Origin: a bacterium | GTDB lineage: Bacteria > Patescibacteriota > Andersenbacteria > UBA10190 > CAIZMI01 | Length of the DNA stretch: 64,000 nucleotides | Direction of reading: 5' to 3' | Assembly: GCA_030647555.1 (NCBI GenBank) | Contig: JAUSJG010000027.1 | Coordinates: forward strand, 15,532-79,531 | Part shown: piece by piece, positions 6,312-36,677 of the stretch | Layout of the letters: each line of letters opens with the position of its first letter | Numbering within the stretch: position 1 is the first letter of the stretch | Notes under the pieces: generated by a model | Told to the model about the DNA's origin: nothing | What the model saw: the letters and a program-made list of their open reading frames with translations, nothing else | Database searches by the model: none | Translations under genes and position numbers: made by a program

Positions 6312-9300
6312 ATGTTAAGAACTTTTAAATCGGTCTTCCCTGGTATCCTGACTGTTGTTTTATTTATGGGTTGGTTTAGTCTTGCCACGCCGAAGCTTTT
6401 TGCGGAGGAGGGGGTTGCTTCATCACAAGAGACCAGTACCACTCCCGAAGTGGACCCGTTGGCCACTTCGGGAGTGGTACTGGGTGAAGCAACTCCCGCT
6501 TCAACACCGACACCCACTTCTGATCCAACACCAACACCAAATTCAACACCGCTACCCACTCCCGATCCCACGCCCGCTGTCACTCCCCCAATTACCCCTG
6601 TTCCTAATCCCAGTCCCACGGCTACACCGGAGGGAACTGATCCCGAGAACGAAAAACCAAATATCACCAAGACGGAAGAAGATACGGATACGGGGAAACT
6701 AGTCACTCTTTCCGCGCCGGACGAGACGGTAAATAATCAAAACGTCGTCACCGGCACCGAGATCCCCGAGATCTACAAAGTCGGTCAAGAAGGAAGAATC
6801 CAAATCAAGTGGAAAAACAACAACGATCAGGCAATGCAATTCAAGGCCGAAGATAAAAACAACAACGGCAAGCTTGATTACGTCGAGTGGACCGTTCCTC
6901 ATCTCTCCACCCAAGTCTTTGAAATCATCTACATCAGCAAAGCCTTCCAATTAGACGAGAACAAAGAAATAATCAGTGACATCTACGATAAGGTAAAGAC
7001 CCAAGATAACAACTGGGCAACAGTAAAAGATGGCCAATCTGTCCGTGTAACCTTCCAACAAGTATTGGATAATACGAAAGATATCACGATTCACGCCAGA
7101 CCAAAACAGAATCCTTTACTTTCTCTTTTTCAAGCCAAACCAAAAATCGAAGTTTATCCTGTTTATTCCACCACCCCTGAGACATCGGGGGTCCAAGCGT
7201 CCGAACCAATCGCCACGTTTCAAAGTATCGACAAAGAAAACACTTATCAAATCCTTCTCAAAGACTTAAAGACCCCTACCGATCAGTTTGATCTAAGAGT
7301 TATCAATGGCGACATTGATTTTGATTACATCGTAGATCCAGTAGGCTGGCTGACAAACTGGACTCACAGAAAGAAGATCACCATTGCCAACACCAATGTG
7401 GATGCGGATTTAACGGATTTTCCGGCACTGGTGAGCATTACTGCTGATGCGGATTTGGCAACCGCACTGGCAACTGGCTACGACATCAGGTTCACGGATT
7501 CCGGCGGAAGCACTTTGCTTTCCTACGAACGAGAATCTTGGTCAGGAGGCGCAGGCGCCAGCGCCACAGGAATCTTCTGGGTCAAAGTGCCAACCATCGA
7601 CGACACCGTGGACACCGACATTTATGTGTACTACGGCAAAAGTGACGCCGTCGACGGCCAATCGGCCGTCAATGTGTGGGATAGCAATTACAAAGGCGTG
7701 TGGCACATGGACGACGGGGCAGACACAAGCCACATTAACGATTCGACTTCCAATGGAAAAACCGGAACAAAGGAGGGGGCAGCAACACCTTCGCAAACAA
7801 CAGGATTGATCGGAAAGGCACAAAGCTTTGCCGCGCAACAAATCTCCACATCGAATATCGGGGTTTCTACGGTCGCTGGCGATAAAACAACGGTAGATTT
7901 TTGGATGAAGTGGGACGGAACGGACGAAGTGATGCCGTTCGGATTCGCGGCCTACGACCTGTATATGCATTTATCCGGCATAGGATTCAATTCCGCGCAA
8001 GGCGATGTATATGGCATCCCGACGACCGGATTCTCCGGGAACTGGAAGCACATAACGGCTGTGTTTTTTAACGGAGCATACACGGGGAATACGAAGATCT
8101 ATGTCAACGGAGTCTCCCAAACACTGACGCAGCTGTTTGGAGGCGCAGGAAGCGCGACCGTCAGCGTCAATCCTATGATCAGTGGCTGGGGATATAATTC
8201 GGGGTATAAATTTTCCGGATTATTGGATGACGTGAGAATATCGAATCTTGAGCGCTCTGCGGAGTGGATTAAGTTTGAATATTATAATCAAAGCTCGGCA
8301 AATGCAGAACTTACTTTTGCAAGCCAAGAAAACAATGTAAGCTGGTTGGCTGGCTGGAGCAATAGAAAGAAAATCACTATTGATCATACTAAAGTTGGTG
8401 GAGGCACTGAAACCCAAACCAACTTCCCGGTTCTTATTTCCCTCACAGGCTTATCCGGCATCAATGCCAATGGCACCGACATCAGATTCACTGCTGATGA
8501 TGGTGGAACATATCTTGCCCGCGAAATTGAAAGTTATTCCGCCGGCGCCCTTACCGCCTGGGTGAAAATTCCAACATTATCCCACACCGCAGACACCGTG
8601 ATTTATATGTACTATGGCAATAGTAGCGCTACCGAGCCCGCCGCCAATTCCACGTATGGAAGCCAAAATGTGTGGGACAGCAGTTTTAAAGGCGTGTGGC
8701 ATTTGAAGGAAGCAACAGGAGTAAACAATGCCGACTCAACCAGCAACGCCAACACAGGAACGCCAACGAATGGTCCAGTGCAAGCCACAGGGAAAGTTGA
8801 TGGCTCATTGAGCTTTGATGGGGGGGATGATTATGTAAATGTAGGAACTATTATTAATGTCGGCAACACGTTTAGCGTCGATGCTTGGTTCAACGCCAAT
8901 GAAGTAAAGACAGCCGGTTTAGTTTCAGTAATTGATTCAGGTGGGGACGGTCACTATGGCATTTGGACGAGAAACGACGGCACTGTTGAACTAATACTAG
9001 ACTGGTCGACTGGATGGACAAGTGTATCAACCACATATAGCACAAACAATTGGATACATATTATTGGCACATTTGATGGTACAACACTTCGTCTTTACAA
9101 AAATGGAATACTAGCGATTTCAAATACACCATCTGGTACTCCGATAAATGCTTCCAACAACTTAGTAATTGGAGCGATAACGGCAGCGAGCTTTCCATTC
9201 AACGGTCTCCTCGATGACACTCGCGTTTCCTCCACCGCTCGCTCCGCAGGTTGGATTGCTACCGAGTATGCCAACCAAAACTCTCCGGGGACTTTTTATG

Positions 9301-12300
9301 CAACCGATGATACCGGCGGAACCAGCAACAACATTGTTTGGACAGATGGTTCGGGAGACAACTTGTGGAGCACCGCCGGCAACTGGCAAGGCGGAGTAGT
9401 CCCAACCGCCAGTGACACCGCGGTGTTTAATTCCTCTGCCACCGGAAACGTCACCATAGACACAAATGCCAGCGTCAAAGGCATCAACATTGCCAGCGGT
9501 TACACCGGAACTATCACGCAATCTGCAAGTTACACCGTCACTATAGGAACCAGCGGTTTTACCCAAGCCGACGGCGTGTTTTCCGCCGGAGCCGGAGCCT
9601 TCACCGTGTCCGGCAATTGGGCGCACTCCGCAGGAACATTTACCGCCAACTCCGGCACGGTCACGCTCAATGGCACCGCTCAAACCATCTCCGGCAGCAC
9701 CACTTTCTACAACCTCACCAAGTCCGTAGCCTCTGCCGACACCCTCACATTTACCGCAGGAACAACACAGACAATTACCAACACCCTCACTCTCAACGGC
9801 GCCAGCGGACAACTGCTCTCGCTTCGTTCTTCCTCAACGCCAACGCAATGGAGCATCGATCCCCAAGGCACGAAATCATTCTCCTACCTGGATATCCAAG
9901 ACTCCAATAATATTAACGCCGTCAAAGCCAACGCTGGTTCCACCTCCATCTCTTCCGGTAACAATACCAACTGGTTCTTTGATGACACACTTCCGACAAT
10001 CCAATCCGTCTCTTCCGATAAAGCCAATAACACATACACGACCGGTACCGTCATCGATATCGACCTCACGTTCTCCGAACCCGTTACCTTAACCGGTACC
10101 GGCACGATCACCCTCGAAACAGGGACAACAGATCAAACCTGCGATTTTCAAGTTACCGACTCCGCTACAACAACCTGCAACTATACCGTGCAAACAGGAG
10201 ACACCAGCAGTGATCTCACTGTTAAAACAGTGGAAGGAACAATCAAAGATTCAGCAGAGAATCAAATGACCAATTTTGTGCCCGCCTCCAACCTCGCCGT
10301 AAACAAACAAATTGTAATCGATACTTTCCCCACCGCACCCTCTAATCTAACCGCCACCGTTCTTTCTTCTTCTTCCATTAAGTGGGACTGGACGGATAAC
10401 AGCAGTAACGAAGCCGGTTTTAAGTTGTACTCCTCCACAGGGACGCTTCTTGCGACCGTTTCTACAGGGGTAACCACATATACCGAGACAACGCTCACGG
10501 AAAACACCACATACAATCGCAAAGTCGTTTCATACAACAACGCCGGCAATTCTGCTTATTCTTCCACCGTTTCCGCGCTCACCAAACTAAACGCGCCATC
10601 GCTACTTTCCGGTCTCGCCATCTCTTCTACCAGTATTACCTGGAGCTGGACAGACAACAGTGGTGATGAAACAGGGTTCAAATTGTATGATGAAAATAAT
10701 GATTTGGTTGCTACGATTTCGACAGTCAATCGAACATACTACACCGAAACAAGTCTCACCAAAGGAACCAGTTACACCCGCAAGGTTGCTTCCTATAACG
10801 ATGATGGCACGTCAAGTTATTCCAACACCGTCACCGTCCAAACCCTCGCCCTCGCTCCCGCTTCACCAAAGCTTTTCACACCTGTTCCCGGCGCAGAGTT
10901 GGACACGCTCACGCCGACCTTCTCCTTTGGCCGTGTCTCCACCCTAGACGGCATCAAGTCGTACACCCTGCTAATCTACACAGAAGGAAGCACAACTAAG
11001 TCATACACGATTACTGATCTCCCTGATGGTTCCGTCGTCAACAACTCCGACTACACCGCCGAAGGTAATCAAGATTCCATAACCATCACCCTGAAAACAG
11101 AAGCCGGTCTTGTCAAAGGTCCCCACACATGGAAGGTGCGGGCCACGGACAACAACAACGCAACGGGAGACTCCGACTTCGCTTCCTTCACCATTGTCCT
11201 TACCGAAACCACCGCCGTCATCTCTCAACCCACTCCCACCGCGACCAGCAGTCCCGCTCCGTTGGAAGAACTGGCCGTTAAACCTCTTACTCCCGCCGAA
11301 GTAACCAAGCAGTACCAAGCAGGGAAGACTCCCTCCCGTACCAGTCCCTCACTCTGGCTTGATAACCTGGAGAAACAAGCGCAGATCAGAGCGGATAAGC
11401 AAACGGAGAATATGGATCAGCTGTTAAGCAAGTTTATTCCATTTGAGAAGATCCAAGCTTTTAATAACCGCCTGCAAGCCTTTATGCAAAGTCTCCAACA
11501 AAAATTAGCCAGTTTCTTTAATACAATGAAGAATCAAATAATCGCCTTCTTCACTAACACAACGCCTTCCAGTGTTCAACGTTTCTTCGCTTTCCTTTCT
11601 TCCTTCTTCCAAAACACAAGCAATTGGTGGGCGGAGCTGATGCAACAGGGCCGAGCGAACAGACTGGCGCTCGCGGAACAGGGAACAAACATCTTTGTCG
11701 TTTCGTTTAATCCCGTGAACAAAGTGGTGTCAAGTATGCAAGCGGGTGTGTTTAACATTATTGAGAAGTTCCAAGGCATCAACACGCCCAAAGATGCCAT
11801 CCTTGCCGATATCACGGCCAACCAGACCGCGCTTAAGCAATCTACCAATCGTCTGGTCGAAGGTACCGTCGATTTCTTCGGCCGACAGTTTAACGCGACG
11901 AAGAAAATCGCCATCTCCCTCTTCGCGGGGGCGCACACCACGTTCCGTTATAAGGTTTTGGCGGGAACGGGCGTAATTATAAGGAATACCGGTACTTGGC
12001 TTCACAATCTAATGAGTCAAGGCCGAGAGAACCGATTGGCGCTGGCGGGGAGTGGAACGAAGGTAGTAAACACCATCATTGATCCTGTACAGAGAGTGAG
12101 AAAAGCCGCCTGGCTTGGTTCCATTCAAGCATTGGAAGTTCTGGAAGGCAAAGACCAACTGAAACTCGCCATCGCCGACGTCCATCTTTCTGAGATACTA
12201 AACAACGAAGCCACGCTTAATTGGTCCACCAATCGTGTGACTTACGCCAAAGTCAACTACGGCGAATCCCTGATGTATGGCGAAGAAGTATTTATCAACG

Positions 12301-12434
12301 ACTATCAAAATAAACAAACAATAAAGTTGCCAAACCTAAAACCCAACACGAAGTATTATTTCGAGATTATTGTTACCGATCTGCAAAAAGAACAAGCGTA
12401 CGACGCGTATTATAGTTTTGTGACGAAAGAGTAG
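6312..12434 (+). CDS. Giant (2040-aa) secreted/anchored surface protein: signal anchor, Pro/Thr linker, two tandem DUF2341-like + LamG/ConA-like modules, beta-helix-like Thr/Gly-rich region, Ig-like and two FN3-like domains, duplicated C-terminal helical region, terminal FN3-like domain
   Basis: N-terminal hydrophobic segment, then TPTPTSDPTPTP linker. Two copies of W..RKKITI...FP.L....G..DIRFT module. Each copy followed by LLDDVRISN..RSAEWI / LLDDTRVSSTARSAGWI (LamG signature). Two FN3-like repeats (W.WTDNS..E.GFKLY...Y.R.V.SYN..G.S.YS). Internal duplicate QGRxNRLALAxxGT. Domain names assigned by motif recognition only. Confidence 0.75.
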   Translation: MLRTFKSVFPGILTVVLFMGWFSLATPKLFAEEGVASSQETSTTPEVDPLATSGVVLGEATPASTPTPTSDPTPTPNSTPLPTPDPTPAVTPPITPVPNPSPTATPEGTDPENEKPNITKTEEDTDTGKLVTLSAPDETVNNQNVVTGTEIPEIYKVGQEGRIQIKWKNNNDQAMQFKAEDKNNNGKLDYVEWTVPHLSTQVFEIIYISKAFQLDENKEIISDIYDKVKTQDNNWATVKDGQSVRVTFQQVLDNTKDITIHARPKQNPLLSLFQAKPKIEVYPVYSTTPETSGVQASEPIATFQSIDKENTYQILLKDLKTPTDQFDLRVINGDIDFDYIVDPVGWLTNWTHRKKITIANTNVDADLTDFPALVSITADADLATALATGYDIRFTDSGGSTLLSYERESWSGGAGASATGIFWVKVPTIDDTVDTDIYVYYGKSDAVDGQSAVNVWDSNYKGVWHMDDGADTSHINDSTSNGKTGTKEGAATPSQTTGLIGKAQSFAAQQISTSNIGVSTVAGDKTTVDFWMKWDGTDEVMPFGFAAYDLYMHLSGIGFNSAQGDVYGIPTTGFSGNWKHITAVFFNGAYTGNTKIYVNGVSQTLTQLFGGAGSATVSVNPMISGWGYNSGYKFSGLLDDVRISNLERSAEWIKFEYYNQSSANAELTFASQENNVSWLAGWSNRKKITIDHTKVGGGTETQTNFPVLISLTGLSGINANGTDIRFTADDGGTYLAREIESYSAGALTAWVKIPTLSHTADTVIYMYYGNSSATEPAANSTYGSQNVWDSSFKGVWHLKEATGVNNADSTSNANTGTPTNGPVQATGKVDGSLSFDGGDDYVNVGTIINVGNTFSVDAWFNANEVKTAGLVSVIDSGGDGHYGIWTRNDGTVELILDWSTGWTSVSTTYSTNNWIHIIGTFDGTTLRLYKNGILAISNTPSGTPINASNNLVIGAITAASFPFNGLLDDTRVSSTARSAGWIATEYANQNSPGTFYATDDTGGTSNNIVWTDGSGDNLWSTAGNWQGGVVPTASDTAVFNSSATGNVTIDTNASVKGINIASGYTGTITQSASYTVTIGTSGFTQADGVFSAGAGAFTVSGNWAHSAGTFTANSGTVTLNGTAQTISGSTTFYNLTKSVASADTLTFTAGTTQTITNTLTLNGASGQLLSLRSSSTPTQWSIDPQGTKSFSYLDIQDSNNINAVKANAGSTSISSGNNTNWFFDDTLPTIQSVSSDKANNTYTTGTVIDIDLTFSEPVTLTGTGTITLETGTTDQTCDFQVTDSATTTCNYTVQTGDTSSDLTVKTVEGTIKDSAENQMTNFVPASNLAVNKQIVIDTFPTAPSNLTATVLSSSSIKWDWTDNSSNEAGFKLYSSTGTLLATVSTGVTTYTETTLTENTTYNRKVVSYNNAGNSAYSSTVSALTKLNAPSLLSGLAISSTSITWSWTDNSGDETGFKLYDENNDLVATISTVNRTYYTETSLTKGTSYTRKVASYNDDGTSSYSNTVTVQTLALAPASPKLFTPVPGAELDTLTPTFSFGRVSTLDGIKSYTLLIYTEGSTTKSYTITDLPDGSVVNNSDYTAEGNQDSITITLKTEAGLVKGPHTWKVRATDNNNATGDSDFASFTIVLTETTAVISQPTPTATSSPAPLEELAVKPLTPAEVTKQYQAGKTPSRTSPSLWLDNLEKQAQIRADKQTENMDQLLSKFIPFEKIQAFNNRLQAFMQSLQQKLASFFNTMKNQIIAFFTNTTPSSVQRFFAFLSSFFQNTSNWWAELMQQGRANRLALAEQGTNIFVVSFNPVNKVVSSMQAGVFNIIEKFQGINTPKDAILADITANQTALKQSTNRLVEGTVDFFGRQFNATKKIAISLFAGAHTTFRYKVLAGTGVIIRNTGTWLHNLMSQGRENRLALAGSGTKVVNTIIDPVQRVRKAAWLGSIQALEVLEGKDQLKLAIADVHLSEILNNEATLNWSTNRVTYAKVNYGESLMYGEEVFINDYQNKQTIKLPNLKPNTKYYFEIIVTDLQKEQAYDAYYSFVTKE

Positions 12435-22886: not shown

Positions 22887-23324
22887 ATGAAAATAAATAC
22901 ACAGAAAAACAAAAAAGGGTTTACGATGATAGAGTTGTTGGTTGTAATATCGGTGATTGCTTTACTTGTCGCCCTCGTGCTTGTTGCAGTCTCAATGGCT
23001 AGGGTGAAGGCAAATAATTCTCGGATTAAGGGCGATATGGACCAGTTGCGGAAGCAAGCAGAAGTGATATACGTAGCAAATGGAATGACAACATATTGTA
23101 AGGGCGTAGTTGCGGGGGATTGTTTTAGTAATGGTCAGAACCCTCAGGTAATTTTGCTTCGTGATGATATTGTGAAAAGAAGTTATGCTGCAGCTTATCC
23201 AAATCTGATCGCAAATGATATTGGATATTGCATTTCATCAAAAATGGCAAATAATAATAGGCTTTGTTATGATTCTTCGGGCAAACAAACGACGGGTATG
23301 TGTTCGGGCATCGTGTGCCAATAA
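22887..23324 (+). CDS. Second type IV pilin (class-III signal peptide)
   Basis: 145 aa. KKG|FTMIELLVVISVIALLVALV. C-terminal cysteines (CYDSSGKQTTGMCSGIVC) suggest a disulfide-bonded loop. Confidence 0.85.
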   Translation: MKINTQKNKKGFTMIELLVVISVIALLVALVLVAVSMARVKANNSRIKGDMDQLRKQAEVIYVANGMTTYCKGVVAGDCFSNGQNPQVILLRDDIVKRSYAAAYPNLIANDIGYCISSKMANNNRLCYDSSGKQTTGMCSGIVCQ

Positions 23325-24079
23325 TGTTGGTAGTAATTGTTGGGGTTGCCCTTATCATTGGTAGTTTTTTGACGGTCGCTTCGGAAGACCCGGATGGGTT
23401 TGATTGGTTGACGCGAAAACGGTCGAAATGCATGGAATGTGGGCATGTTTTGGATTTTTATGATCTTTTTCCGGTTTTTAGTTACTTGTGGTTGAAGGGA
23501 AAATGTCGCTATTGTGGAAAACTTATTGCTCCATATCATTTGATCACCGAATTAACGACTGTTTTCGTTTTTGTATTAGCTTATTTAGTTACTCCGAAAC
23601 CGCTACAAATAGGTTTTGTTTTTTTGTTAGTGATGCTGACACTATTATTGGTGCTTACTTTAACAGATCTGAAGTTTTGGACGCTACCGGATATCTTCGT
23701 CGGTCTATTGGCGCTTGTTGGTATTATTCGCGCCATAGTTATACACAGGCCGGATATAAAAGACTGTCTGGCGGGTGCGGTTGTGGGTTTTTTGTTGCTC
23801 GGTGGTATTCACTATTTTTCAAAAGGGAAGGCAATGGGCTTTGGGGACGTAAAACTGGCCGCCGCCATGGGGGTTGTACTGGGACTAGGACAAGTTGTTC
23901 TGGCCTTAATGATTGCTTTTGTCTTGGGAGGCATTGTTGGCGCTGTGCTTATGGCTCTAAAGAAGGCAACCGCAAAAAGCATGGTGCCGTTTGGGCCGTT
24001 TCTCACAATTGCAACGGCACTATTGTTGTTATTTCCACAGTTATATGGACGTATTCTTCTTTTTTACGGTCTGATGTAA
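23300..24079 (+). CDS. pilD: Prepilin peptidase PilD (A24 family); likely true start at the ATG at 23324 overlapping the pilin stop (TAATG)
   Basis: 259 aa. CMECGHVL...CRYCGK tetracysteine zinc motif. Multiple TM helices. Conserved catalytic Asp residues context. Confidence 0.85.
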   Translation: MFGHRVPIMLVVIVGVALIIGSFLTVASEDPDGFDWLTRKRSKCMECGHVLDFYDLFPVFSYLWLKGKCRYCGKLIAPYHLITELTTVFVFVLAYLVTPKPLQIGFVFLLVMLTLLLVLTLTDLKFWTLPDIFVGLLALVGIIRAIVIHRPDIKDCLAGAVVGFLLLGGIHYFSKGKAMGFGDVKLAAAMGVVLGLGQVVLALMIAFVLGGIVGAVLMALKKATAKSMVPFGPFLTIATALLLLFPQLYGRILLFYGLM

Positions 24080-24094
24080 GATATAGACAGACAC

Positions 24095-24715
24095 ATGTTA
24101 CGGCAAAAACAAACAATAACTAAAAATTCCGGCTTTACGCTGATTGAAGCCATTGTGACGATAATAATAATGTTGTTATTAATGGGTATTCTTTTATCCG
24201 GTTATAGTCAGGCCAAACAGCGTTTCTTGGTACGTGATTCAGCTCAACAGTTTGCCGATGTAATTAGGCAGACAATCGCTGACACAAAAAACGGCATAAG
24301 GGTTGTACCCGTTGCACCCATTACTTGTGTGCCTGACACCTCAAACCCTGCTACCGCAGATTATCGTCAATGTTCTAATTATAAAATAAGAGCCACCTCA
24401 GTGGATGACGCAGGTGTTACATTTAATAAATATGATAAATATGTAATAGGTACGGGAGTAAAGTACGCAAATGATCCAATGAATCATCCGTTGCTGGTTG
24501 GGACGGCTTTTTTGGGGGAATTAAATCTTGATTTTACTTATTCTACCGGGACATTTCCGCTTGTATCTATTGGTATGACGGGTAATGGTGGTAGTGTTAC
24601 GTCGAACGAGACAATTCAGCTGACGATAATAAGCTTGAGCGATGGAAATATAAAAACTAATATTTGTATTATGAAGTCAGGTTCTGTGTTGGTTCAAGCA
24701 GATCCTTGTAACTAG
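24095..24715 (+). CDS. Minor pilin / pseudopilin with prepilin-type N-terminus
   Basis: 206 aa. NSG|FTLIEAIVTIIIMLLL. Confidence 0.75.
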   Translation: MLRQKQTITKNSGFTLIEAIVTIIIMLLLMGILLSGYSQAKQRFLVRDSAQQFADVIRQTIADTKNGIRVVPVAPITCVPDTSNPATADYRQCSNYKIRATSVDDAGVTFNKYDKYVIGTGVKYANDPMNHPLLVGTAFLGELNLDFTYSTGTFPLVSIGMTGNGGSVTSNETIQLTIISLSDGNIKTNICIMKSGSVLVQADPCN

Positions 24716-24723
24716 AAAAATTT

Positions 24724-25440
24724 ATGAAAAAATATAAATTTTTAAAATCAAACATAAAACAGAGAGGGTTTTCCTTGGTTGGTGTTTTGGTGGCGGCATT
24801 TATCGCGCTCCTTGTTCTTACGGCGCTTCTTTCAATGCTTTCGCAAATTTTAGCACTGGGAAGGGTTTCTAAAAACAAGTTCGTGGCCGTCAATCTGGCA
24901 AAAGAAGGGATTGAGCTGGTTCGCAATATGCGAGACAGTAACTGGTTGTATTATCCAGTCGTGAGTGGGACATCGGTACAAGCGATGCAATGGCGGGGAT
25001 GTCAAGGTGGTGGTACTGCTACAGATTGCGTGAAATTAAAAAGTTTGTGCAATGGGGGGCCATATACAGTCGATGCTTTGGATGATGACCTTATTTTGAA
25101 AAGTGCCCCCAACCTCACCGATAGAGAGTTGAAACAGGTTACTTATGGAGGGGCAAAAGTGTTTACACATCAAGCAGGTGGCACTACTAACCCCATCTTT
25201 AGTCGGTCAATAACAATTGGTTCGGCGGACATAGAACCCTCTGAATTGTCTGAAGATTATTTACCAGTCTTGCTTGGTTGTGGCGAAACGGCTGATTTCT
25301 CGAGCACTAATTCTTTAAAAATAAAACCAAGAGGTATTGTTGTTACTTCGAGGGTTGAGTGGCTTGAACCGGGGACTGGCACACCTAAGAATGTCGAGTT
25401 GACGGGAATTTTATATGATTGGTTAACACAAAGGCCATGA
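24724..25440 (+). CDS. Minor pilin-like protein (PilV/PilW-like N-terminus)
   Basis: 238 aa. QRG|FSLVGVLVAAFIALLVL. Confidence 0.6.
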   Translation: MKKYKFLKSNIKQRGFSLVGVLVAAFIALLVLTALLSMLSQILALGRVSKNKFVAVNLAKEGIELVRNMRDSNWLYYPVVSGTSVQAMQWRGCQGGGTATDCVKLKSLCNGGPYTVDALDDDLILKSAPNLTDRELKQVTYGGAKVFTHQAGGTTNPIFSRSITIGSADIEPSELSEDYLPVLLGCGETADFSSTNSLKIKPRGIVVTSRVEWLEPGTGTPKNVELTGILYDWLTQRP

Positions 25441-26045
25441 GGTATCAAGAAAAAAATAGCGGTTTTTCGTTGATTGAATTAATGGTGGCCGGTTCAATCT
25501 TTATACTTGTCTTGGGCTTTGTGGGTGGAATATTTTCAATGTTTGTTAGTCGACAGAAGCAACAGGTTGATACACAGTTACTACAGCAGGAAGTGCAGAA
25601 CTTTTTGGAAGTTATCGAACGTGACGTTAGGACAGCGTACGGAGAAAAGTTTAATGATCCGAATGCATCATCAAATCAATCGATTTCATTTATGAATCAA
25701 GAGCAAAAGTTTACGCTCCCTGTTAGTGAGCGAGTTGAACATCAATATTCTTTAAAGACCGATATGGTCGAAAATTGGATAGGGCGAGTATATTATAATG
25801 ACGGCAGTGGATCATTATCTATGCCTATTCCTATTACATCCGATAAAATTAATGTAACAAACCTAGAGTTCAAATGGAATAAAGGGAAGTTCGCGACAGA
25901 CAGTAGTGGTAACCATTATCTAACCGGAGTTCCTTTACGGCTAACTATCGCGCTTGAGGTGTGTAGACGAGATGATCTAACCTCGTGCCTGCAAACTCAG
26001 GCCACGATTGCTTCTCGTCAAACTAAGCCGATAGATGAAAAATAA
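25437..26045 (+). CDS. Minor pilin with prepilin-type N-terminus (start chosen at ATG overlapping upstream stop, ATGA; longest ORF would start 25419)
   Basis: NSG|FSLIELMVAGSIFILVL. Confidence 0.7.
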   Translation: MRYQEKNSGFSLIELMVAGSIFILVLGFVGGIFSMFVSRQKQQVDTQLLQQEVQNFLEVIERDVRTAYGEKFNDPNASSNQSISFMNQEQKFTLPVSERVEHQYSLKTDMVENWIGRVYYNDGSGSLSMPIPITSDKINVTNLEFKWNKGKFATDSSGNHYLTGVPLRLTIALEVCRRDDLTSCLQTQATIASRQTKPIDEK

Positions 26046-26491
26046 TGCTTAAATATATTTTACAAAAAAACAACAATAAGGGGGAAGTGGCGCTAATTTA
26101 TGTTTTCATTATTTTGTCGATACTGATTGTAAGCGCATTTACTCTTTCCGCGATCGCTATAAGTACAATTAAGGGGTCCGGGACCGCCGAATATGTTGCC
26201 CGTGCTCAAGTCGCCTCCGACAGTTATCTTGAAAAAGCGATGTTTCAATTTCATTGGTCAAAACTCACAGACAGTCGATGCTTGAATACGGTAACACCCG
26301 TTGACGGTGATGGCACGAAGGTTACTGTAATGGTGGACAATGGTGAAAAAGGAGTGTGCCCATCGCTTGATGGTGTTGTTACAAAAAAAGATGAAAAGCT
26401 CTGTGTGTATTCATTTGCTGAAAATCACGGCGTTCAGAAAAAGGGATCGGCCGGAGCGGGTGACCCTACAAAGGGTTGCGAAGTGAGATAG
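26045..26491 (+). CDS. Pilus-associated hypothetical protein with N-terminal hydrophobic helix (PilX-like?)
   Basis: 148 aa. TAATG coupling to upstream gene. N-terminal membrane helix. Several cysteines. Confidence 0.4.
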   Translation: MLKYILQKNNNKGEVALIYVFIILSILIVSAFTLSAIAISTIKGSGTAEYVARAQVASDSYLEKAMFQFHWSKLTDSRCLNTVTPVDGDGTKVTVMVDNGEKGVCPSLDGVVTKKDEKLCVYSFAENHGVQKKGSAGAGDPTKGCEVR

Positions 26492-28932: not shown

Positions 28933-30354
28933 ATGCAATCGGAAATAAAAAACCTTGCGGAAAAATTGCAATCCGGTGAAACAACCGCCGTTCGATTATT
29001 GGATTCGGCTTACAAAATAATTGAAGAAAAAGAACCCAAAATCAATGCTTTTATCAGTCTTATGAAAGAACAGGCGCAAAGACAAGCGGAAGAGATTGAT
29101 GGGCGGCGAAAAGCCGGTGAAAAATTATCGGTATTGGCTGGAATTCCTTGCGCGATTAAAGACATGATTTGTATTGCCGAAACAAAAACTACTGCCGCTT
29201 CAAAGATGCTGGAAAATTTTGTGCCACCCTATGACGCGGAAGTAATTACGCGTTTGCGAAATAATGGCGCTGTTTTTGTTGGAAAAACCAATTTGGATGA
29301 ATTCGCGATGGGATCCTCCACTGAATTTTCGATTGTCGGACCGACGCATAATCCACTGGATAATCGTCTGGTGGCTGGTGGTAGTTCCGGTGGTAGCGCG
29401 GCGGCCGTTGCATCCGGAATGGTGCCATACGCGCTAGGAACAGATACCGGCGGGTCGATTCGCGAGCCGGCGAGTTTTTGCGGGATAGTGGGTTTTAAAC
29501 CGACGTATGGCAGAATTAGTCGCTCCGGTGTGATTGCTTACGCTTCTTCTTTTGATCAAGTTGGGCCTCTGGCACGGACGGTGGAAGATACAGCCTTGGT
29601 TTATGAAGCGATTGCGGGGCCAGATCCAAAAGATTCGACGACGCTTCCGGCGTCAGTGCCGTCGGTTTTGCCGACGATGCGTGATGGCGTAAAAGGTCTG
29701 CGTATTGGTGTGCCGAAAGAGTTTTTTAGCGAAGGTGTGGATAAAGAAGTAGCCACTACTGTAAAAAAGGCAATTGATGAACTGCAAGAAAAAGGTGCAA
29801 TTATTACCGAAGTTTCCTTGCCGTTAACCGATGTGGCGCTTGCCGTTTATCTTATTCTTACTCGCGCGGAGGCGTCGACAAATTTGGCACGATATGATGG
29901 AGTTCGTTTCGGATTGCGTTCCGACGGAAAAACAATGGAAGAAATTTACCGCAAAACACGGGGCGCGGGGTTTGGGGTGGAAGTGAAACAGCGTATTATG
30001 TTGGGTACGTTTGCGCTTTCTTCCGGTTATGCCGATAAGTATTACCGACAAGCGACGGCGGTGCGTAGAGAAATTGCGTTGGAATATGCCAGGATTTTTG
30101 AACAAGTTGATGTTTTGGTTGGTCCCGCGACGCCAGAGGTCGCGTTTCCAATCGGTTCGAAAACCAATGATCCATTGCGAATGTACGCGGCGGACGTTCT
30201 GACTGTTCCGGTAAACGTGGCCGGTGTGCCGGCGATTGTTGTTCCGTGTGGCAAAGCGCATGATCTGCCAGTTGGTCTGCAGATTATTGCCGCGCAAGGT
30301 AGGGAAGATTTATGTTTTCGTGTTGCCGCGTCAGCTGAAGCGTCCAATGGTTAA
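28933..30354 (+). CDS. gatA: Glu-tRNA(Gln) amidotransferase subunit A (amidase)
   Basis: 473 aa. Amidase signature GGSSGGSAAAVASG. Ser-cisSer-Lys triad context. Confidence 0.95.
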   Translation: MQSEIKNLAEKLQSGETTAVRLLDSAYKIIEEKEPKINAFISLMKEQAQRQAEEIDGRRKAGEKLSVLAGIPCAIKDMICIAETKTTAASKMLENFVPPYDAEVITRLRNNGAVFVGKTNLDEFAMGSSTEFSIVGPTHNPLDNRLVAGGSSGGSAAAVASGMVPYALGTDTGGSIREPASFCGIVGFKPTYGRISRSGVIAYASSFDQVGPLARTVEDTALVYEAIAGPDPKDSTTLPASVPSVLPTMRDGVKGLRIGVPKEFFSEGVDKEVATTVKKAIDELQEKGAIITEVSLPLTDVALAVYLILTRAEASTNLARYDGVRFGLRSDGKTMEEIYRKTRGAGFGVEVKQRIMLGTFALSSGYADKYYRQATAVRREIALEYARIFEQVDVLVGPATPEVAFPIGSKTNDPLRMYAADVLTVPVNVAGVPAIVVPCGKAHDLPVGLQIIAAQGREDLCFRVAASAEASNG

Positions 30355-32875
30355 GGCTAAGGAAATTGCAAAAAGAAAAGCGACAACGTTCGAATTTATT
30401 TCCGCAAAGTTTAACAAGGTCACAAGAGAGGCTCAATTTAACTATCGAGTTTGTTTTGAGAATTTAGAAGAACTAAATTTTGTTGAAACATTAATCTTTC
30501 CCCAGGAGCGAGATATTGTCATCGGGGATGATGATTTAATTCAGACAGCATTATCGGATTTACATCTAGTTTTGGGAGTCAGTTATTACAAACTTTATTG
30601 TCCGTCAGATGTTGTTTTGAAACGGAAACTCACGCTTGAGCAAGCTTCTTTTTGGACAAAACTATACACCGAAGGGATGGGGGAATTTTATTTTCGAAAT
30701 CAGTTAGATCCAAAAAAGTTTCAAGGTTTTAAGGGGGAGCCGGGATTGAAAGCAAAGAGTTGGTCTGTTAGTAGAAGTGCCAGGAGTTTGGTTGGTGTTG
30801 GTGGCGGTAAGGAGTCGGCTGTTGCCGTAGAGCTTATGAAAGAACACGCGCATGATGTGACCGCTTTTGTCCTGGAAGCCAGACCATCCACCATCGTGGA
30901 TGAATCGATTAGGGTGATGAGTGTTCCGTCATTGCGTGTTCAAAGGGTGTTAGATCCTAAATTGTTTGGGGGATTGAGCGATACATATAACGGTCATGTG
31001 CCCGTGTCGGCAATCATTGCGTTTGCCGGGTATTTTGCGGCGCTTCTGTATGGTTTTAGAGAAGTTGTTGTGGGCAATGAATTCAGTAGTAATTTTGGCA
31101 ATGTTGATTATAAAGGAATCGCGGTAAATCACCAATGGAGCAAATCGCAAGTTTTTGAGAGTGCGTTTCAAAAATATACGCGAGAAAATATCTCGCCGGA
31201 TGTAGAATATTTTTCTTTATTACGTCCGTTTTATGAAATCAGGATTGCGCAAATGTTTTCCAAATACAAACAATATTTTTCGGTATTTTCCAGTTGTAAT
31301 CGAAATTTCAAGATAAAAGAAACAACGGAAAAGAAGTGGTGTGGCGAGTGTGCAAAATGTGTGTTTGTTTTTACGTTGCTGTCCGCATTTCTCACAAAAA
31401 AAGAATTGGTTGGAATTTTTGGCGCGAATCTTTATGACAACAAAAAATTATTGCCGATCTTTCGCGATCTGTTAGGGATTGGAAGAATGAAGCCGTTTGA
31501 TTGCGTGGGAACATTTACAGAGACGCGAGTTGCTTTTGAAATGTCGGCAAAAAAATATGGTAAAACACCGGTGCAAAAAGCGTTGTTGGGAGAATTTAAG
31601 GTGACAGGTCAAGAGCGTAGTGAAGTAATGCAAATGCAAAAAACTGAACTACAACCGCCCTATTTGCTTTATGGTGTAAATAATATTCTTCTGGTTGGCT
31701 ATGCGCGTGAGGGTGTGGAGTCGGAAAAATTTCTCAAAAAACATTTTCCTAAAATAAAACTCGGTATTGCCGATAAAAAATTTGGCGATGATTATTTAGC
31801 TAAACAAAATGATTTTGATTTGGTAATTAAAACCGCAGGTATGCCGGGCCGTTTGATTAAAATTCCGTATACAACGGCTACAAATTTATTTTTTGCCAAC
31901 GTTGATCGCAGGAAAGTTATTGGTGTTACCGGCACAAAAGGAAAGAGTACAACAGCCACTTTAATTGCGTGGATTATTGAACAAAGTGGTCGACCGGTGC
32001 AGTTGCTGGGAAATATCGGCAAACCGATGTTGCATGCCCTCGACAAACCCTTGGTGGAAAATGAGCTGGTTGTTTTGGAATTATCCAGTTACCAACTGGA
32101 GGATCTGCAATTTTCACCGCACATTGCCGTCGTTACCAATCTTTTTCCGGAACATATGGATTATCACGGCGATGTTAAAAAATATTATCATGCTAAGAAA
32201 CAAATTATTACAACGCAAACAAGCGATGATTTGTTTGTTTACAATGCGGATGATGAGCGTTTGGTCGGGTGGGCGAAAAAGAGTAGGGCAAAAACGGAGA
32301 AGTTTGTCGTCAAACTACCACTAAAAGATAAGGAGATTCCGTTGCTTGGTGAGCATAATAAAAGAAATGTGCGAACGGCGGTAACCGTGGCTCGTCATCT
32401 TGGAATTAATGATGCTGTTATCGCACAAGCAATTAAAACATTTACTCCGCTTAAGCATCGCCTACAATTCGTGGGAGAATATCATGGTATTAAGTTTTAC
32501 GATGATGCTATTTCCACCACTCCGGAATCAACTATTCAGGCGTTGGAAACTTTAAAGAAAGTGGCAACAATCTTTTTGGGTGGCCAAGATCGCGGTTACG
32601 ATTTTTCAGAATTGCGAAAAAGCTTAAAAAAATATGGCGTAAAAAATGTTGTGTTGTTTCCTGACAGCGGGGAAAAAATTATCGATTCCGCGAAAGGTTT
32701 TGAAAACGTCCTGAAAACCTCAAGTATGAAAGAAGCGGTTAAATTCGCATATAAATTTACCAAGCCGGGTGAAATCTGTCTGTTGTCCTGTGCGTCACCC
32801 AGTTACAGTATCTGGAAAGACTTTGAAGAAAAGGGCGATTTGTTTCAGGAGGAAGTGAAAAAACAAGCGAAGTAG
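30347..32875 (+). CDS. murD: Fusion protein: N-terminal ~450-aa domain with PP-loop-like motif (VGGGKESAV) and CGECAKC cysteine cluster, fused to C-terminal MurD-like Mur ligase (UDP-MurNAc-L-Ala:D-Glu ligase family). Start set at the ATG overlapping the gatA stop (ATGGTTAA); longest ORF begins 30224.
   Basis: C-terminal half: GVTGTKGKSTTATLIAW (Mur ligase P-loop), MurD-like N-domain KTAGMP...IPYTTATNLFFANVD, C-terminal FLGGQDRGYDF. N-terminal half has no recognisable Mur motifs. Continuous reading frame, no stop. Confidence 0.6.
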   Translation: MVKAKEIAKRKATTFEFISAKFNKVTREAQFNYRVCFENLEELNFVETLIFPQERDIVIGDDDLIQTALSDLHLVLGVSYYKLYCPSDVVLKRKLTLEQASFWTKLYTEGMGEFYFRNQLDPKKFQGFKGEPGLKAKSWSVSRSARSLVGVGGGKESAVAVELMKEHAHDVTAFVLEARPSTIVDESIRVMSVPSLRVQRVLDPKLFGGLSDTYNGHVPVSAIIAFAGYFAALLYGFREVVVGNEFSSNFGNVDYKGIAVNHQWSKSQVFESAFQKYTRENISPDVEYFSLLRPFYEIRIAQMFSKYKQYFSVFSSCNRNFKIKETTEKKWCGECAKCVFVFTLLSAFLTKKELVGIFGANLYDNKKLLPIFRDLLGIGRMKPFDCVGTFTETRVAFEMSAKKYGKTPVQKALLGEFKVTGQERSEVMQMQKTELQPPYLLYGVNNILLVGYAREGVESEKFLKKHFPKIKLGIADKKFGDDYLAKQNDFDLVIKTAGMPGRLIKIPYTTATNLFFANVDRRKVIGVTGTKGKSTTATLIAWIIEQSGRPVQLLGNIGKPMLHALDKPLVENELVVLELSSYQLEDLQFSPHIAVVTNLFPEHMDYHGDVKKYYHAKKQIITTQTSDDLFVYNADDERLVGWAKKSRAKTEKFVVKLPLKDKEIPLLGEHNKRNVRTAVTVARHLGINDAVIAQAIKTFTPLKHRLQFVGEYHGIKFYDDAISTTPESTIQALETLKKVATIFLGGQDRGYDFSELRKSLKKYGVKNVVLFPDSGEKIIDSAKGFENVLKTSSMKEAVKFAYKFTKPGEICLLSCASPSYSIWKDFEEKGDLFQEEVKKQAK

Positions 32876-32879
32876 CGAT

Positions 32880-32915
32880 ACCCTCCCTTATTCAAGGGAG
32901 GGCGAGGGTGGGTTT
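32880..32915. repeat. Hairpin-family repeat ccctcccttattcaagggagggcgagggtggg (partial copy of the CCTCCCTTT..AAAGGGAGG family)
   Basis: Read directly. Related copies at 44255, 48726, 53100 and 61237. Confidence 0.5.
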
Positions 32916-34819: not shown

Positions 34820-34893
34820 CGCGGGGAAGAGCAGCCCGGTCGCTCGCATGGCTCATAACCATGAGGTCGCAGGTTCGAATCCTGCCCCCGCTA
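34820..34893 (+). tRNA. tRNA(CAU), initiator-like (C1/U72 mismatch, A11:U24)
   Basis: Cloverleaf folded by hand: acceptor cgcgggg/ccccgct, D-stem gagc/gctc, anticodon stem catgg/ccatg with loop ctCATaa, T-arm gcagg-ttcgaat-cctgc, discriminator A. No encoded CCA. Confidence 0.7.
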
Positions 34894-34935
34894 CTATTAC
34901 TAAAAAGACCCCTGTGGGGTCTTTTTAGTAATAGA
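34894..34935. terminator. Perfect hairpin after the tRNA (ctattactaaaaagacccc-tgt-ggggtctttttagtaatag)
   Basis: 19-bp stem read directly. Similar aaaatacccctgtggggtatttt hairpin at 35044-35066. Confidence 0.45.
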
Positions 34936-35518: not shown

Positions 35519-35591
35519 GGCTGGATAGCTCAGCGGTTAGAGCAATGGCATCATAAGCCATGGGTCGCAGGTTCGAATCCTGCTCCAGCTA
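35519..35591 (+). tRNA. tRNA(CAU), elongator-type (Met or Ile2/lysidine)
   Basis: Acceptor ggctgga/tccagct (G1-U72). D-stem gctc/gagc. Anticodon stem atggc/gccat with loop atCATaa. T-arm gcagg-ttcgaat-cctgc identical to the first tRNA. Discriminator A. Confidence 0.75.
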
Positions 35592-35617
35592 CAAATTATT
35601 CGTAGGGTATTTGTACA

Positions 35618-36583
35618 TTGTTCGCAAAACGTACGGATACGGTATATAATAGTAGCATGAGAGCAAAAGTTGTGGAAAAGTCGCGGGCAATTCAATTGCG
35701 TAAAAACGGTTTAAGTGTGAAACAGATTGCTCAAAAATTAAGCGTCAGCAAGGGTAGTGTCAGTCCTTGGGTGAAGCTGGTTGTTGTTCCGAAAGAAAAG
35801 AGAAAAAAGATCCGCGAAAGAATGTTAATGGGCGGAGAGAAGGGGAGAAAGAAAATTTTGCGAGGTTGGGATGAATATCGAATATTGCATCCAAAACCGC
35901 CACCATATGTTAAACCAGTCCGTTTAATTGACACTTTTTTTGACAAGTGGTCGCCCGAAATGGCGTATGTGCTGGGCTATTTTGCAGCGGACGGCTGTAT
36001 GTTTCGAAACAAGCGTGGGTCTTATTATATCGAATTTACCTCCACAGACATTGAGTTGATTGCATGTGTAAAAAGTATTTTGGAATCAACAAACAAACTT
36101 GAACGATACAAGCTTAAAAACCCAAAATATAAAATCAGGTATAATATTCAGCTTGGGAGTAAAAGTGCTTTCTTGTCGCTTAATAAACTTGGTTTAACAC
36201 CAAATAAGAGTTTAATAATCAAGTTTCCAGCTGTGCCTGATGAGTATTTGGGGCATTTTTTGCGTGGTAACCTTGATGGCGACGGCTGTGTTACTTTCAC
36301 AAATTATTTTCGAAAAGACAGGGGAAAAAGATATTTGAGTTTAATGATCCGTTTCACCAGTGGAAGTAGAGTGTTTTTAGTCGGGATGAAAAATAGGATT
36401 GAACAAAAAATACCGAATATCGGTGGAAGTTTGATATTATACACTCCAAGGCACCATGTTTTGGCGTATTGCACGTCAAGTGCTAGACAACTGTATAAGA
36501 TAATGTATCCTAATAAATTAGTGCCCTGTCTAAAGCGTAAACGTGACATTTTTCTTAGGGCATTTGAGATTTTGGACCCGTAG
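35618..36583 (+). CDS. Free-standing double-motif LAGLIDADG homing endonuclease with N-terminal helix-turn-helix domain
   Basis: 321 aa. Motif 1 MAYVLGYFAADGCMF and motif 2 LGHFLRGNLDGDGCV (LAGLIDADG consensus). N-terminal LSVKQIAQKLSVSKGSVSPW HTH-like. Last two codons plus stop overlap the 5' acceptor of tRNA-Asp. Confidence 0.85.
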   Translation: MFAKRTDTVYNSSMRAKVVEKSRAIQLRKNGLSVKQIAQKLSVSKGSVSPWVKLVVVPKEKRKKIRERMLMGGEKGRKKILRGWDEYRILHPKPPPYVKPVRLIDTFFDKWSPEMAYVLGYFAADGCMFRNKRGSYYIEFTSTDIELIACVKSILESTNKLERYKLKNPKYKIRYNIQLGSKSAFLSLNKLGLTPNKSLIIKFPAVPDEYLGHFLRGNLDGDGCVTFTNYFRKDRGKRYLSLMIRFTSGSRVFLVGMKNRIEQKIPNIGGSLILYTPRHHVLAYCTSSARQLYKIMYPNKLVPCLKRKRDIFLRAFEILDP

Positions 36584-36648
36584 TTTAATCGGTAAAACAC
36601 CTGCTTGTCACGCAGGAGACAGCGAGTTCGATCCTCGTCGGGTCCGCC
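36574..36648 (+). tRNA. tRNA-Asp(GUC) with encoded CCA
   Basis: Acceptor ggacccg/cgggtcc. D-stem gttt/aaac. Anticodon stem cctgc/gcagg with loop ttGTCac. T-arm gcgag-ttcgatc-ctcgt. Discriminator G then CCA. Confidence 0.8.
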
Positions 36649-36677
36649 AAAAAATACGCCTTTCGGCGTATTTTTCG
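36649..36677. terminator. Bidirectional rho-independent terminator (aaaaaatacgcc-tttc-ggcgtattttt) serving tRNA-Asp and the convergent dsbA-like gene
   Basis: Symmetric hairpin flanked by A-run and T-run. Confidence 0.6.

Follow-up and report, generated by a model that had tools for sequence, protein, structure and literature searches.

What is encoded by the long open reading frame (ORF) at positions 30347-32875 on the forward strand of the window, meaning the whole 64-kb stretch of contig JAUSJG010000027.1 that was analysed? The initial annotation described the product as a MurD-like Mur ligase fused to an N-terminal domain with a PP-loop-like motif and a cysteine cluster, and suggested that extension of UDP-MurNAc-L-Ala by D-Glu might be coupled to an AsnB-type amidation or other modification of the peptidoglycan stem peptide. 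On the evidence given below, the gene very likely codes for one protein with both MurL and MurD2 activity, by which the D-Glu of the stem peptide is provided without free D-Glu. It is most likely a fused example, from Patescibacteria (the candidate phyla radiation, CPR), of the known MurD2/MurL pathway and not a case of new chemistry. This alternative D-Glu route is known from Xanthomonas oryzae, where it consists of MurL (XOO_1319) and MurD2 (XOO_1320) (Feng et al. 2017; PMC8788868, PMC5808125). MurD2 attaches L-Glu in this route. The epimerisation then catalysed by X. oryzae MurL is ATP- and Mg-dependent and runs one way only, from the terminal L-Glu to D-Glu, and in it one ATP is consumed and AMP is formed (PMC8788868, PMC5808125).

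According to both the ORF list and the sequence, the frame runs uninterrupted from ATG at 30347 to TAG at 32873-32875 and comprises 842 codons. It covers a MurL match (NCBIfam, E 9e-98) and a murD match (E 3e-84), values far beyond chance for either half (1e-84 to 1e-98). In the mechanical ORF list the frame begins further upstream, at a GTG (30224) that lies within gatA, but ATG 30347 was taken as the start because the homologues begin 7-15 residues before a conserved FxFxSY motif. The motifs quoted in the initial annotation are all present as described, namely VGGGKESAV (residues 151-159, 30797-30823), WCGECAKC (residues 331-338, 31337-31360) and GVTGTKGKSTT (residues 526-536, 31922-31954), as is the continuous frame itself.

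The N-terminal half is related to MurL along most of its length. Residues 10-402 (30374-31552) match positions 4-395 of the 447 in NCBIfam model NF041275, the UDP-N-acetyl-alpha-D-muramoyl-L-alanyl-L-glutamate epimerase MurL, with 327.6 bits and E 9.1e-98. The families concerned are already in databases, and the precomputed Pfam annotation of an identical protein lists PF26299 (MurL_N) and PF26298 (MurL_epimerase_C) together with Mur_ligase_M and Mur_ligase_C. These MurL families are evidently newer than the local Pfam-A copy, which gave nothing significant on residues 1-480 and only a faint match of PP-loop type (tRNA_Me_trans, E 0.12). Neither Pfam nor NCBIfam scans placed a Mur ligase model on residues 1-480, which agrees with the earlier statement that the N-terminal half lacks Mur motifs, and a sequence search of the PDB found no solved relative for the MurL half (residues 1-450).

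Relatives of this half number thousands, and the closest share only 49-53% identity with it. All of the closest that are named come from Patescibacteria metagenome bins, and they include stand-alone proteins of ~445 aa as well as fused MurL-Mur ligase proteins. Some of the listed homologues are called the epimerase by JGI, and fused homologues (P0002, P0003) carry the NCBI label of a D-glutamate ligase. Given the MurD2 signature described below, that label is probably a systematic misannotation of the substrate chirality, in which the epimerase half is also omitted.

The C-terminal half, residues 446-842 (31682-32872), is a Mur ligase of predicted MurD2 type with a Rossmann-like N-domain, an ATP-binding middle domain and a C-terminal domain. 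The MurD layout first assigned to it is borne out, as residues 484-838 match TIGR01087 (murD) with a score of 283.6 bits, where the cut-off is 211.95, Pfam Mur_ligase_M and Mur_ligase_C are matched as well, and solved MurD chains were retrieved with E-values down to 9e-50 in the PDB sequence search. The Mur ligase P-loop GTKGKST (residues 529-535, 31931-31951) falls in invariant alignment columns, and its Lys is present in 73 of the 73 MurL-linked ligases. The catalytic residues K533, H603 and K617 align with K115, H183 and K198 of E. coli MurD.

Which glutamate enantiomer this ligase uses can be predicted from its Glu site. In X. oryzae MurD2 the site holds E197, R358, P433 and F435, as against D182, K348, A414 and L416 in E. 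coli MurD; the MurD2 double mutant E197D/R358K is a D-Glu ligase, mutation of the Pro and Phe positions (E. coli 414 and 416) left specificity unaltered, and E. coli MurD K319T accepts L-Glu (PMC8788868). When E. coli MurD, the window protein and the fused homologues were aligned, E602 and H603 in FPEHMDYHG (32144-32170) fell at the positions of D182 and H183, I722 in DDAISTT (32501-32521) replaced the Lys of the NDSK motif (K319), and R749 in LGGQDRGYDF (32576-32605) stood at the position of K348. P818 and Y820 in LLSCASPSYSIWK (32780-32818) occupy the positions of A414 and L416. Hence, the three D-Glu-site residues of canonical MurD, D182, K319 and K348, are absent and are represented by E, I and R. 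Three canonical solved MurDs, 3lk7, 7sir and 4buc, all have the NDSK Lys, with Ala at position 414. Asp182 and Lys348 are retained in two of the three, whereas in S. agalactiae 3lk7 these positions are occupied by Thr and Arg. The five-position pattern E-I-R-P-Y recurs in 54 of the 73 MurL-linked ligases of related genomes, and Arg is found at position 348 in all 70 of those that have a residue there. The ligase half thus has the residues published for MurD2 (E602, R749) and not those of canonical MurD, and use of L-Glu is predicted, contrary to the D-Glu addition assumed at first.

These assignments bear directly on the original proposal, in which a canonical D-Glu-adding MurD would be joined to a PP-loop enzyme amidating or modifying the stem peptide, much as AsnB or MurT/GatD do. 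The N-terminal half matches MurL end to end and carries the Pfam MurL domains, no glutaminase or amidotransferase model matched anywhere in the protein in Pfam and NCBIfam scans taken to E-values of up to 1, and MurT models gave only weak NCBIfam matches (E 4e-5 to 1e-3), all on the Mur ligase half. The residues E, R, P, Y and I give the ligase an L-Glu signature, and the characterised MurL makes no amide and only inverts the C-alpha (PMC8788868, PMC5808125). An amidating enzyme is therefore highly improbable. The broader idea, that a MurD step goes together with a stem-peptide modification in which AMP is formed, holds in outline, with the MurL epimerase as the partner in place of an AsnB-type enzyme.

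A further explanation is that separate murL and murD2 genes were joined by an assembly or sequencing error, with an indel near 31.6 kb. Such an indel could mimic a fusion, since 35 of 80 related genomes have separate genes, which are directly adjacent in 32 and often overlap. However, the identical 842-aa protein is encoded on an independent Logan contig (SRR13727527_398277) with the same gatC-gatA-fusion order, and because that contig was assembled separately, an indel artefact is very unlikely. Another 37 genomes at species level, which come from many studies, have the same continuous ORF, the ~30 closest relatives of the window protein are all fused, and fused representatives of 829-914 aa are common; of the best 150 cluster representatives, 21 have lengths of 795-914 aa. 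Although the linker varies in length among fused homologues, the junction aligns in frame with them from the linker through to the ligase N-domain. Taken together, these observations leave an artefact with the smallest likelihood of any explanation considered here. The MurL-MurD2 fusion is real, and the two-enzyme fusion proposed from the sequence stands.

The distribution of the fusion was determined by scanning genomes taken one per species. A MurL relative is present in at least 595 of these species representatives; the loci analysed are the best 80, and almost all of the 80 are labelled Patescibacteria. Complete Patescibacteria chromosomes with the gene include OZ246396.1 and CP066689.1. 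A single continuous murL-murD ORF was found in 37 of the 80 loci and separate genes in 35, of which 32 have a murD-type gene directly after murL on the same strand. In these adjacent pairs, the ligase gene begins right at the murL stop or no more than a few dozen bases from it, often with an overlap of a few bases. No ligase was seen in the remaining eight loci, in five of which the contig ends within ~0.5 kb. Three changes are enough to account for the fused state on a neighbour-joining tree of the MurL domains, which places the window protein within a clade of 32 fused sequences. On the question whether the fusion is conserved among relatives, both fused and split forms therefore occur, and the nearest clade is fused throughout. 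The MurL family as a whole forms ~3,570 clusters at 50% identity, an exhaustive profile search with a threshold of E ≤ 1e-3 having returned 3,574 cluster representatives, of which 1,632 reach E ≤ 1e-30. Published accounts place MurD2/MurL in Xanthomonadales, a few Alphaproteobacteria and Micromonosporaceae, and reviews call the distribution limited. The literature searched, in which most subscription journals were outside coverage, contained nothing that links MurL/MurD2 to Patescibacteria/CPR or describes a fusion.

Two sets of loci stood out in the scan. In three bins of Gracilibacteria and Absconditabacterales (L055, L066, L076), the MurL or ligase ORFs look shortened or non-adjacent under translation table 11. 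Members of these groups read UGA as a sense codon, so ORF calls made with table 11 are unreliable in such bins, and these exceptions to the murL-murD adjacency may be translation-table artefacts. In ten others (L013, L016, L027, L035, L039, L053, L056, L059, L071 and L073), a Patescibacteria-like murL or murL-murD gene occurs in metagenome-assembled genomes titled otherwise, as 'uncultured Gammaproteobacteria', 'Weeksellaceae', 'Bacillota' or 'Thermoanaerobaculia'. Mislabelling or contamination of the bins is the probable reason, and horizontal transfer is the alternative.

The PP-loop suspected in the N-terminal half, even in its likeness to QueC, is consistent with the predicted structure. 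The core of MurL, approximately residues 144-346 (30776-31384), has the adenine nucleotide alpha-hydrolase fold in the model and resembles QueC. The variant PP-loop GGGKES (residues 152-157, 30800-30817), a predicted ATP pyrophosphate-binding motif, comes directly after residues 144-150, which form the first strand of the core. Among 51 MurL domains, G153, G154, K155 and S157 are invariant, G152 and D/E156 are conserved in at least 90%, and the first Ser of the SGGxDS motif is replaced by Gly, giving the variant GGGK[DE]S. An hhalign comparison of the MurL alignment with the single E. coli QueC sequence placed this motif on SGGQDS, though weakly (E 0.0045, probability 8%). The N-terminal domain does belong to a known family, as had been considered, but this family has a PP-loop fold.

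Cysteines are the other conserved feature of this half. Cys317 and the cysteines of WCGECAKC (Cys332, Cys335 and Cys338; 31295-31360) form the pattern C-x14-C-x2-C-x2-C, a predicted QueC-type Zn site that is invariant at all four positions in the 51 homologues. QueC has a structural zinc site, and the four-Cys cluster is probably a structural metal-binding site of the same kind. In one fused homologue of 840 aa (P0246), the equivalents of C317, C332, C335 and C338 are S, N, D and S, while the PP-loop and Cys386 are kept. The joint loss of all four cysteines was read as that of one separable structural unit, suggesting a dispensable module. Cys386 lies in the segment KPFDCVGT (residues 382-389, 31490-31513), of which K382, P383, C386, V387 and G388 are invariant in the 51 homologues, and would be the better candidate for the base or acid that inverts the C-alpha. 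Further invariant positions in the same set are H217, the NHQWSKS motif, R293 and E297. As predicted from the model, the GGGKES PP-loop would be the adenylation site of MurL. The enzyme has been said to lack known conserved domains, yet an adenylation step was proposed by its authors (PMC8788868, PMC5808125). A QueC-like PP-loop fold agrees with the published formation of AMP from ATP by MurL and would provide a structural basis for that proposal.

Several points weigh against the assignment of a bifunctional MurL-MurD2 enzyme with a PP-loop in its MurL half. The NF041275 score of 327.6 bits is below the equivalog cut-off of 700 bits. The model is named, as MurL_Xanthmoales, for Xanthomonadales only; as it was built for one order, the low score was taken to reflect divergence more than a difference in function. 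The QueC match being weak at the sequence level, membership of the PP-loop superfamily rests mainly on the predicted fold. We know of no enzymology for any Patescibacteria homologue, and the analysis covered 64 kb of the source genome, so that the status of murI and of a D-amino-acid aminotransferase rests on the window. With respect to the ligase, the comparison with MurD2 draws on residues quoted in a review (PMC8788868) for positions 182, 348, 414 and 416 and on the alignment to E. coli MurD. Asp occupies position 182 in 13 of the 73 MurL-linked ligases, and Glu is thus not obligatory there; at position 416 the window protein has Tyr, also aromatic, where MurD2 has Phe, while P818 matches Pro433.

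The fusion could accordingly be real and serve a different role. The ligase might take both Glu enantiomers, for example, or MurL might act mainly on recycled or imported muropeptides and be only one source of D-Glu in a cell that also has murI. The occurrence of Asp at position 182 fits this, as does the MurD of S. mutans, which also has Arg at position 348 and takes mostly D-Glu (PMC8788868); in addition, some Patescibacteria are reported to possess an active glutamate racemase, as in Saccharimonas aalborgensis (cited in PMC11974145). The full five-position signature was nevertheless taken as a match to MurD2, and the ligase is as a rule strictly linked to MurL in the genome. Neither another Mur ligase, including a second murD-type gene, nor murI was found in the 64-kb window, which counts as weak evidence. 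A tblastn search with E. coli MurI had no match in the window or in the 80 related loci, a result that is uninformative for whole genomes. A different role is considered unlikely, though less so than either amidation or an artefact, and synthesis of the stem-peptide D-Glu by a MurL-MurD2 fusion remains the preferred explanation.

A full-length AF2 model of the 842 residues has a pLDDT of 85.7 and a pTM of 0.79. The MurL and MurD2 halves are joined by a linker of 17 residues without regular secondary structure (approximately residues 429-445, 31631-31681), and the model is of low confidence nowhere but at the extreme N-terminus and in two active-site loops of the ligase, 600-605 and 816-829, where the specificity residues lie. 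As suggested by those residues, the ligase half (approximately residues 446-842) would extend UDP-MurNAc-L-Ala by L-Glu, with conversion of ATP to ADP and Pi. The MurL half (approximately residues 10-402) would then bind the ligase product, and the alpha-carboxylate of the terminal L-Glu would be adenylated at the QueC-like PP-loop (GGGKES), with use of ATP and release of AMP. The net outcome would be addition of L-Glu followed by its L-to-D epimerisation. Fusion would keep the two enzymes at 1:1, and the L-Glu intermediate may be handed directly between the active sites.

The full proposal is a tentative one, somewhat less likely to hold in all its parts than to fail in one of them. It would have the MurD2/MurL route, often fused, as the main source of peptidoglycan D-Glu across much of Patescibacteria and not as a peculiarity of a few proteobacterial and actinobacterial genera, with MurL as a QueC-like PP-loop adenylating enzyme in which Cys386 inverts the activated C-alpha, the separable four-Cys metal site is only structural, and the L-Glu intermediate passes directly from one site to the other.

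The genetic context of the fusion gene was also examined. The genes ligA, gatC and gatA lie upstream of it, in the same orientation. The start codon overlaps the end of gatA by 8 nt (ATGGTTAA, 30347-30354), as first noted; the gatA frame ends in AAT GGT TAA, with TAA at 30352-30354. This overlap suggests translational coupling within the ligA-gatC-gatA-murL/D2 run. Six nucleotides past the fusion stop, a GC-rich hairpin (CCCTCCCTT-ATTC-AAGGGAGGG, 32881-32902, forward strand) has a perfect 9-bp stem and a 4-nt loop, with GT- and T-rich sequence after it. This hairpin is tentatively regarded as a possible terminator, perhaps a bidirectional one, between the fusion gene and the convergent gpmI. 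The consensus terminator scan did not call it, and the counts from consensus promoter and terminator scans were at background level.

Three other features of the window were recorded, with their ORFs on the forward strand. The free-standing ORF at 35618-36583 encodes HTH_23 and LAGLIDADG_3 domains (Pfam E 4e-10) and has no NCBIfam match. Among the tRNA genes at 34820-34894, 35519-35592 and 36574-36649, it lies between the second tRNA-Met(CAT) and tRNA-Asp(GTC), and the start of tRNA-Asp is overlapped by the last codons of the ORF, which may be a mobile gene of homing-endonuclease-like type within the tRNA cluster. A 2040-aa product with Laminin_G_3 (ConA-like lectin), DUF2341 and fibronectin type III domains, encoded at 6312-12434, is probably a giant surface protein. 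Directly upstream of ligA, the region 23300-26491 contains short ORFs with prepilin-type N-terminal methylation motifs, including a Pfam N_methyl match in 24724-25440 and the sequence GFSLIELMV in 25419-26045, and this run is probably a pseudopilin or type IV pilin cluster.

Identification of the fusion has several consequences. The annotation of the fused gene is corrected, and the pathway would extend well beyond the few genera in which it was published, given the number of species-representative genomes (at least 595) with a MurL relative. Metabolic reconstructions of these reduced genomes are affected, since the absence of murI does not necessarily imply auxotrophy for D-Glu. The distribution is relevant, too, to MurD2/MurL as a proposed narrow-spectrum drug target. 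The epimerase gains a testable mechanism, as the QueC-like PP-loop fold indicates where adenylation would take place and which few residues are candidates for mutation, and the natural fusion would serve as a single-protein reagent for both steps.

Compared with MurL and MurD2 of X. oryzae, the window protein is alike in the two activities predicted, in the end-to-end match to the MurL model, in the L-Glu residues and in the genetic linkage. It differs in being one polypeptide, with MurL N-terminal and the ligase C-terminal, and not the product of two adjacent genes, as well as in its divergent sequence (327 bits, with an equivalog cut-off of 700), its Patescibacteria-like host and the Tyr in place of Phe at position 416. 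With E. coli MurD and S. agalactiae 3lk7, the ligase half shares the three-domain Mur ligase fold, the P-loop and the equivalents of His183 and Lys198. It departs from E. coli MurD by D182E, K319I, K348R, A414P and L416Y and by its fusion to MurL, and, unlike canonical murD, the fusion gene lies outside any dcw cluster within the window.

The MurL half differs from QueC and the QueC-like Cap9 in the Ser-to-Gly change at the start of the SGGxDS motif, with an identity of only ~11%, and it has in addition an N-terminal beta/alpha module of ~140 aa and a C-terminal helical module with the invariant KPFDCVGT. The outcome would be epimerisation, whereas QueC-type PP-loop enzymes form amides or nitriles. 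MurI has the same purpose, provision of D-Glu for the stem peptide, but is cofactor-independent and reversible, acts on the free amino acid and has an unrelated fold. The amidating systems MurT/GatD and AsnB are similar in that a Mur-ligase-like or PP-loop protein modifies the stem-peptide Glu with ATP; they need a glutaminase partner, for which the fusion protein has no match, and act on lipid II or mDAP. A precedent for consecutive precursor enzymes in one chain is provided by MurC-Ddl (NF011171) and MurE-MurF (NF008896; PDB 8f5d, 'multifunctional fusion protein'), both of which surfaced as weak matches in the NCBIfam and PDB searches. These combine other enzyme pairs and have no MurL domain.

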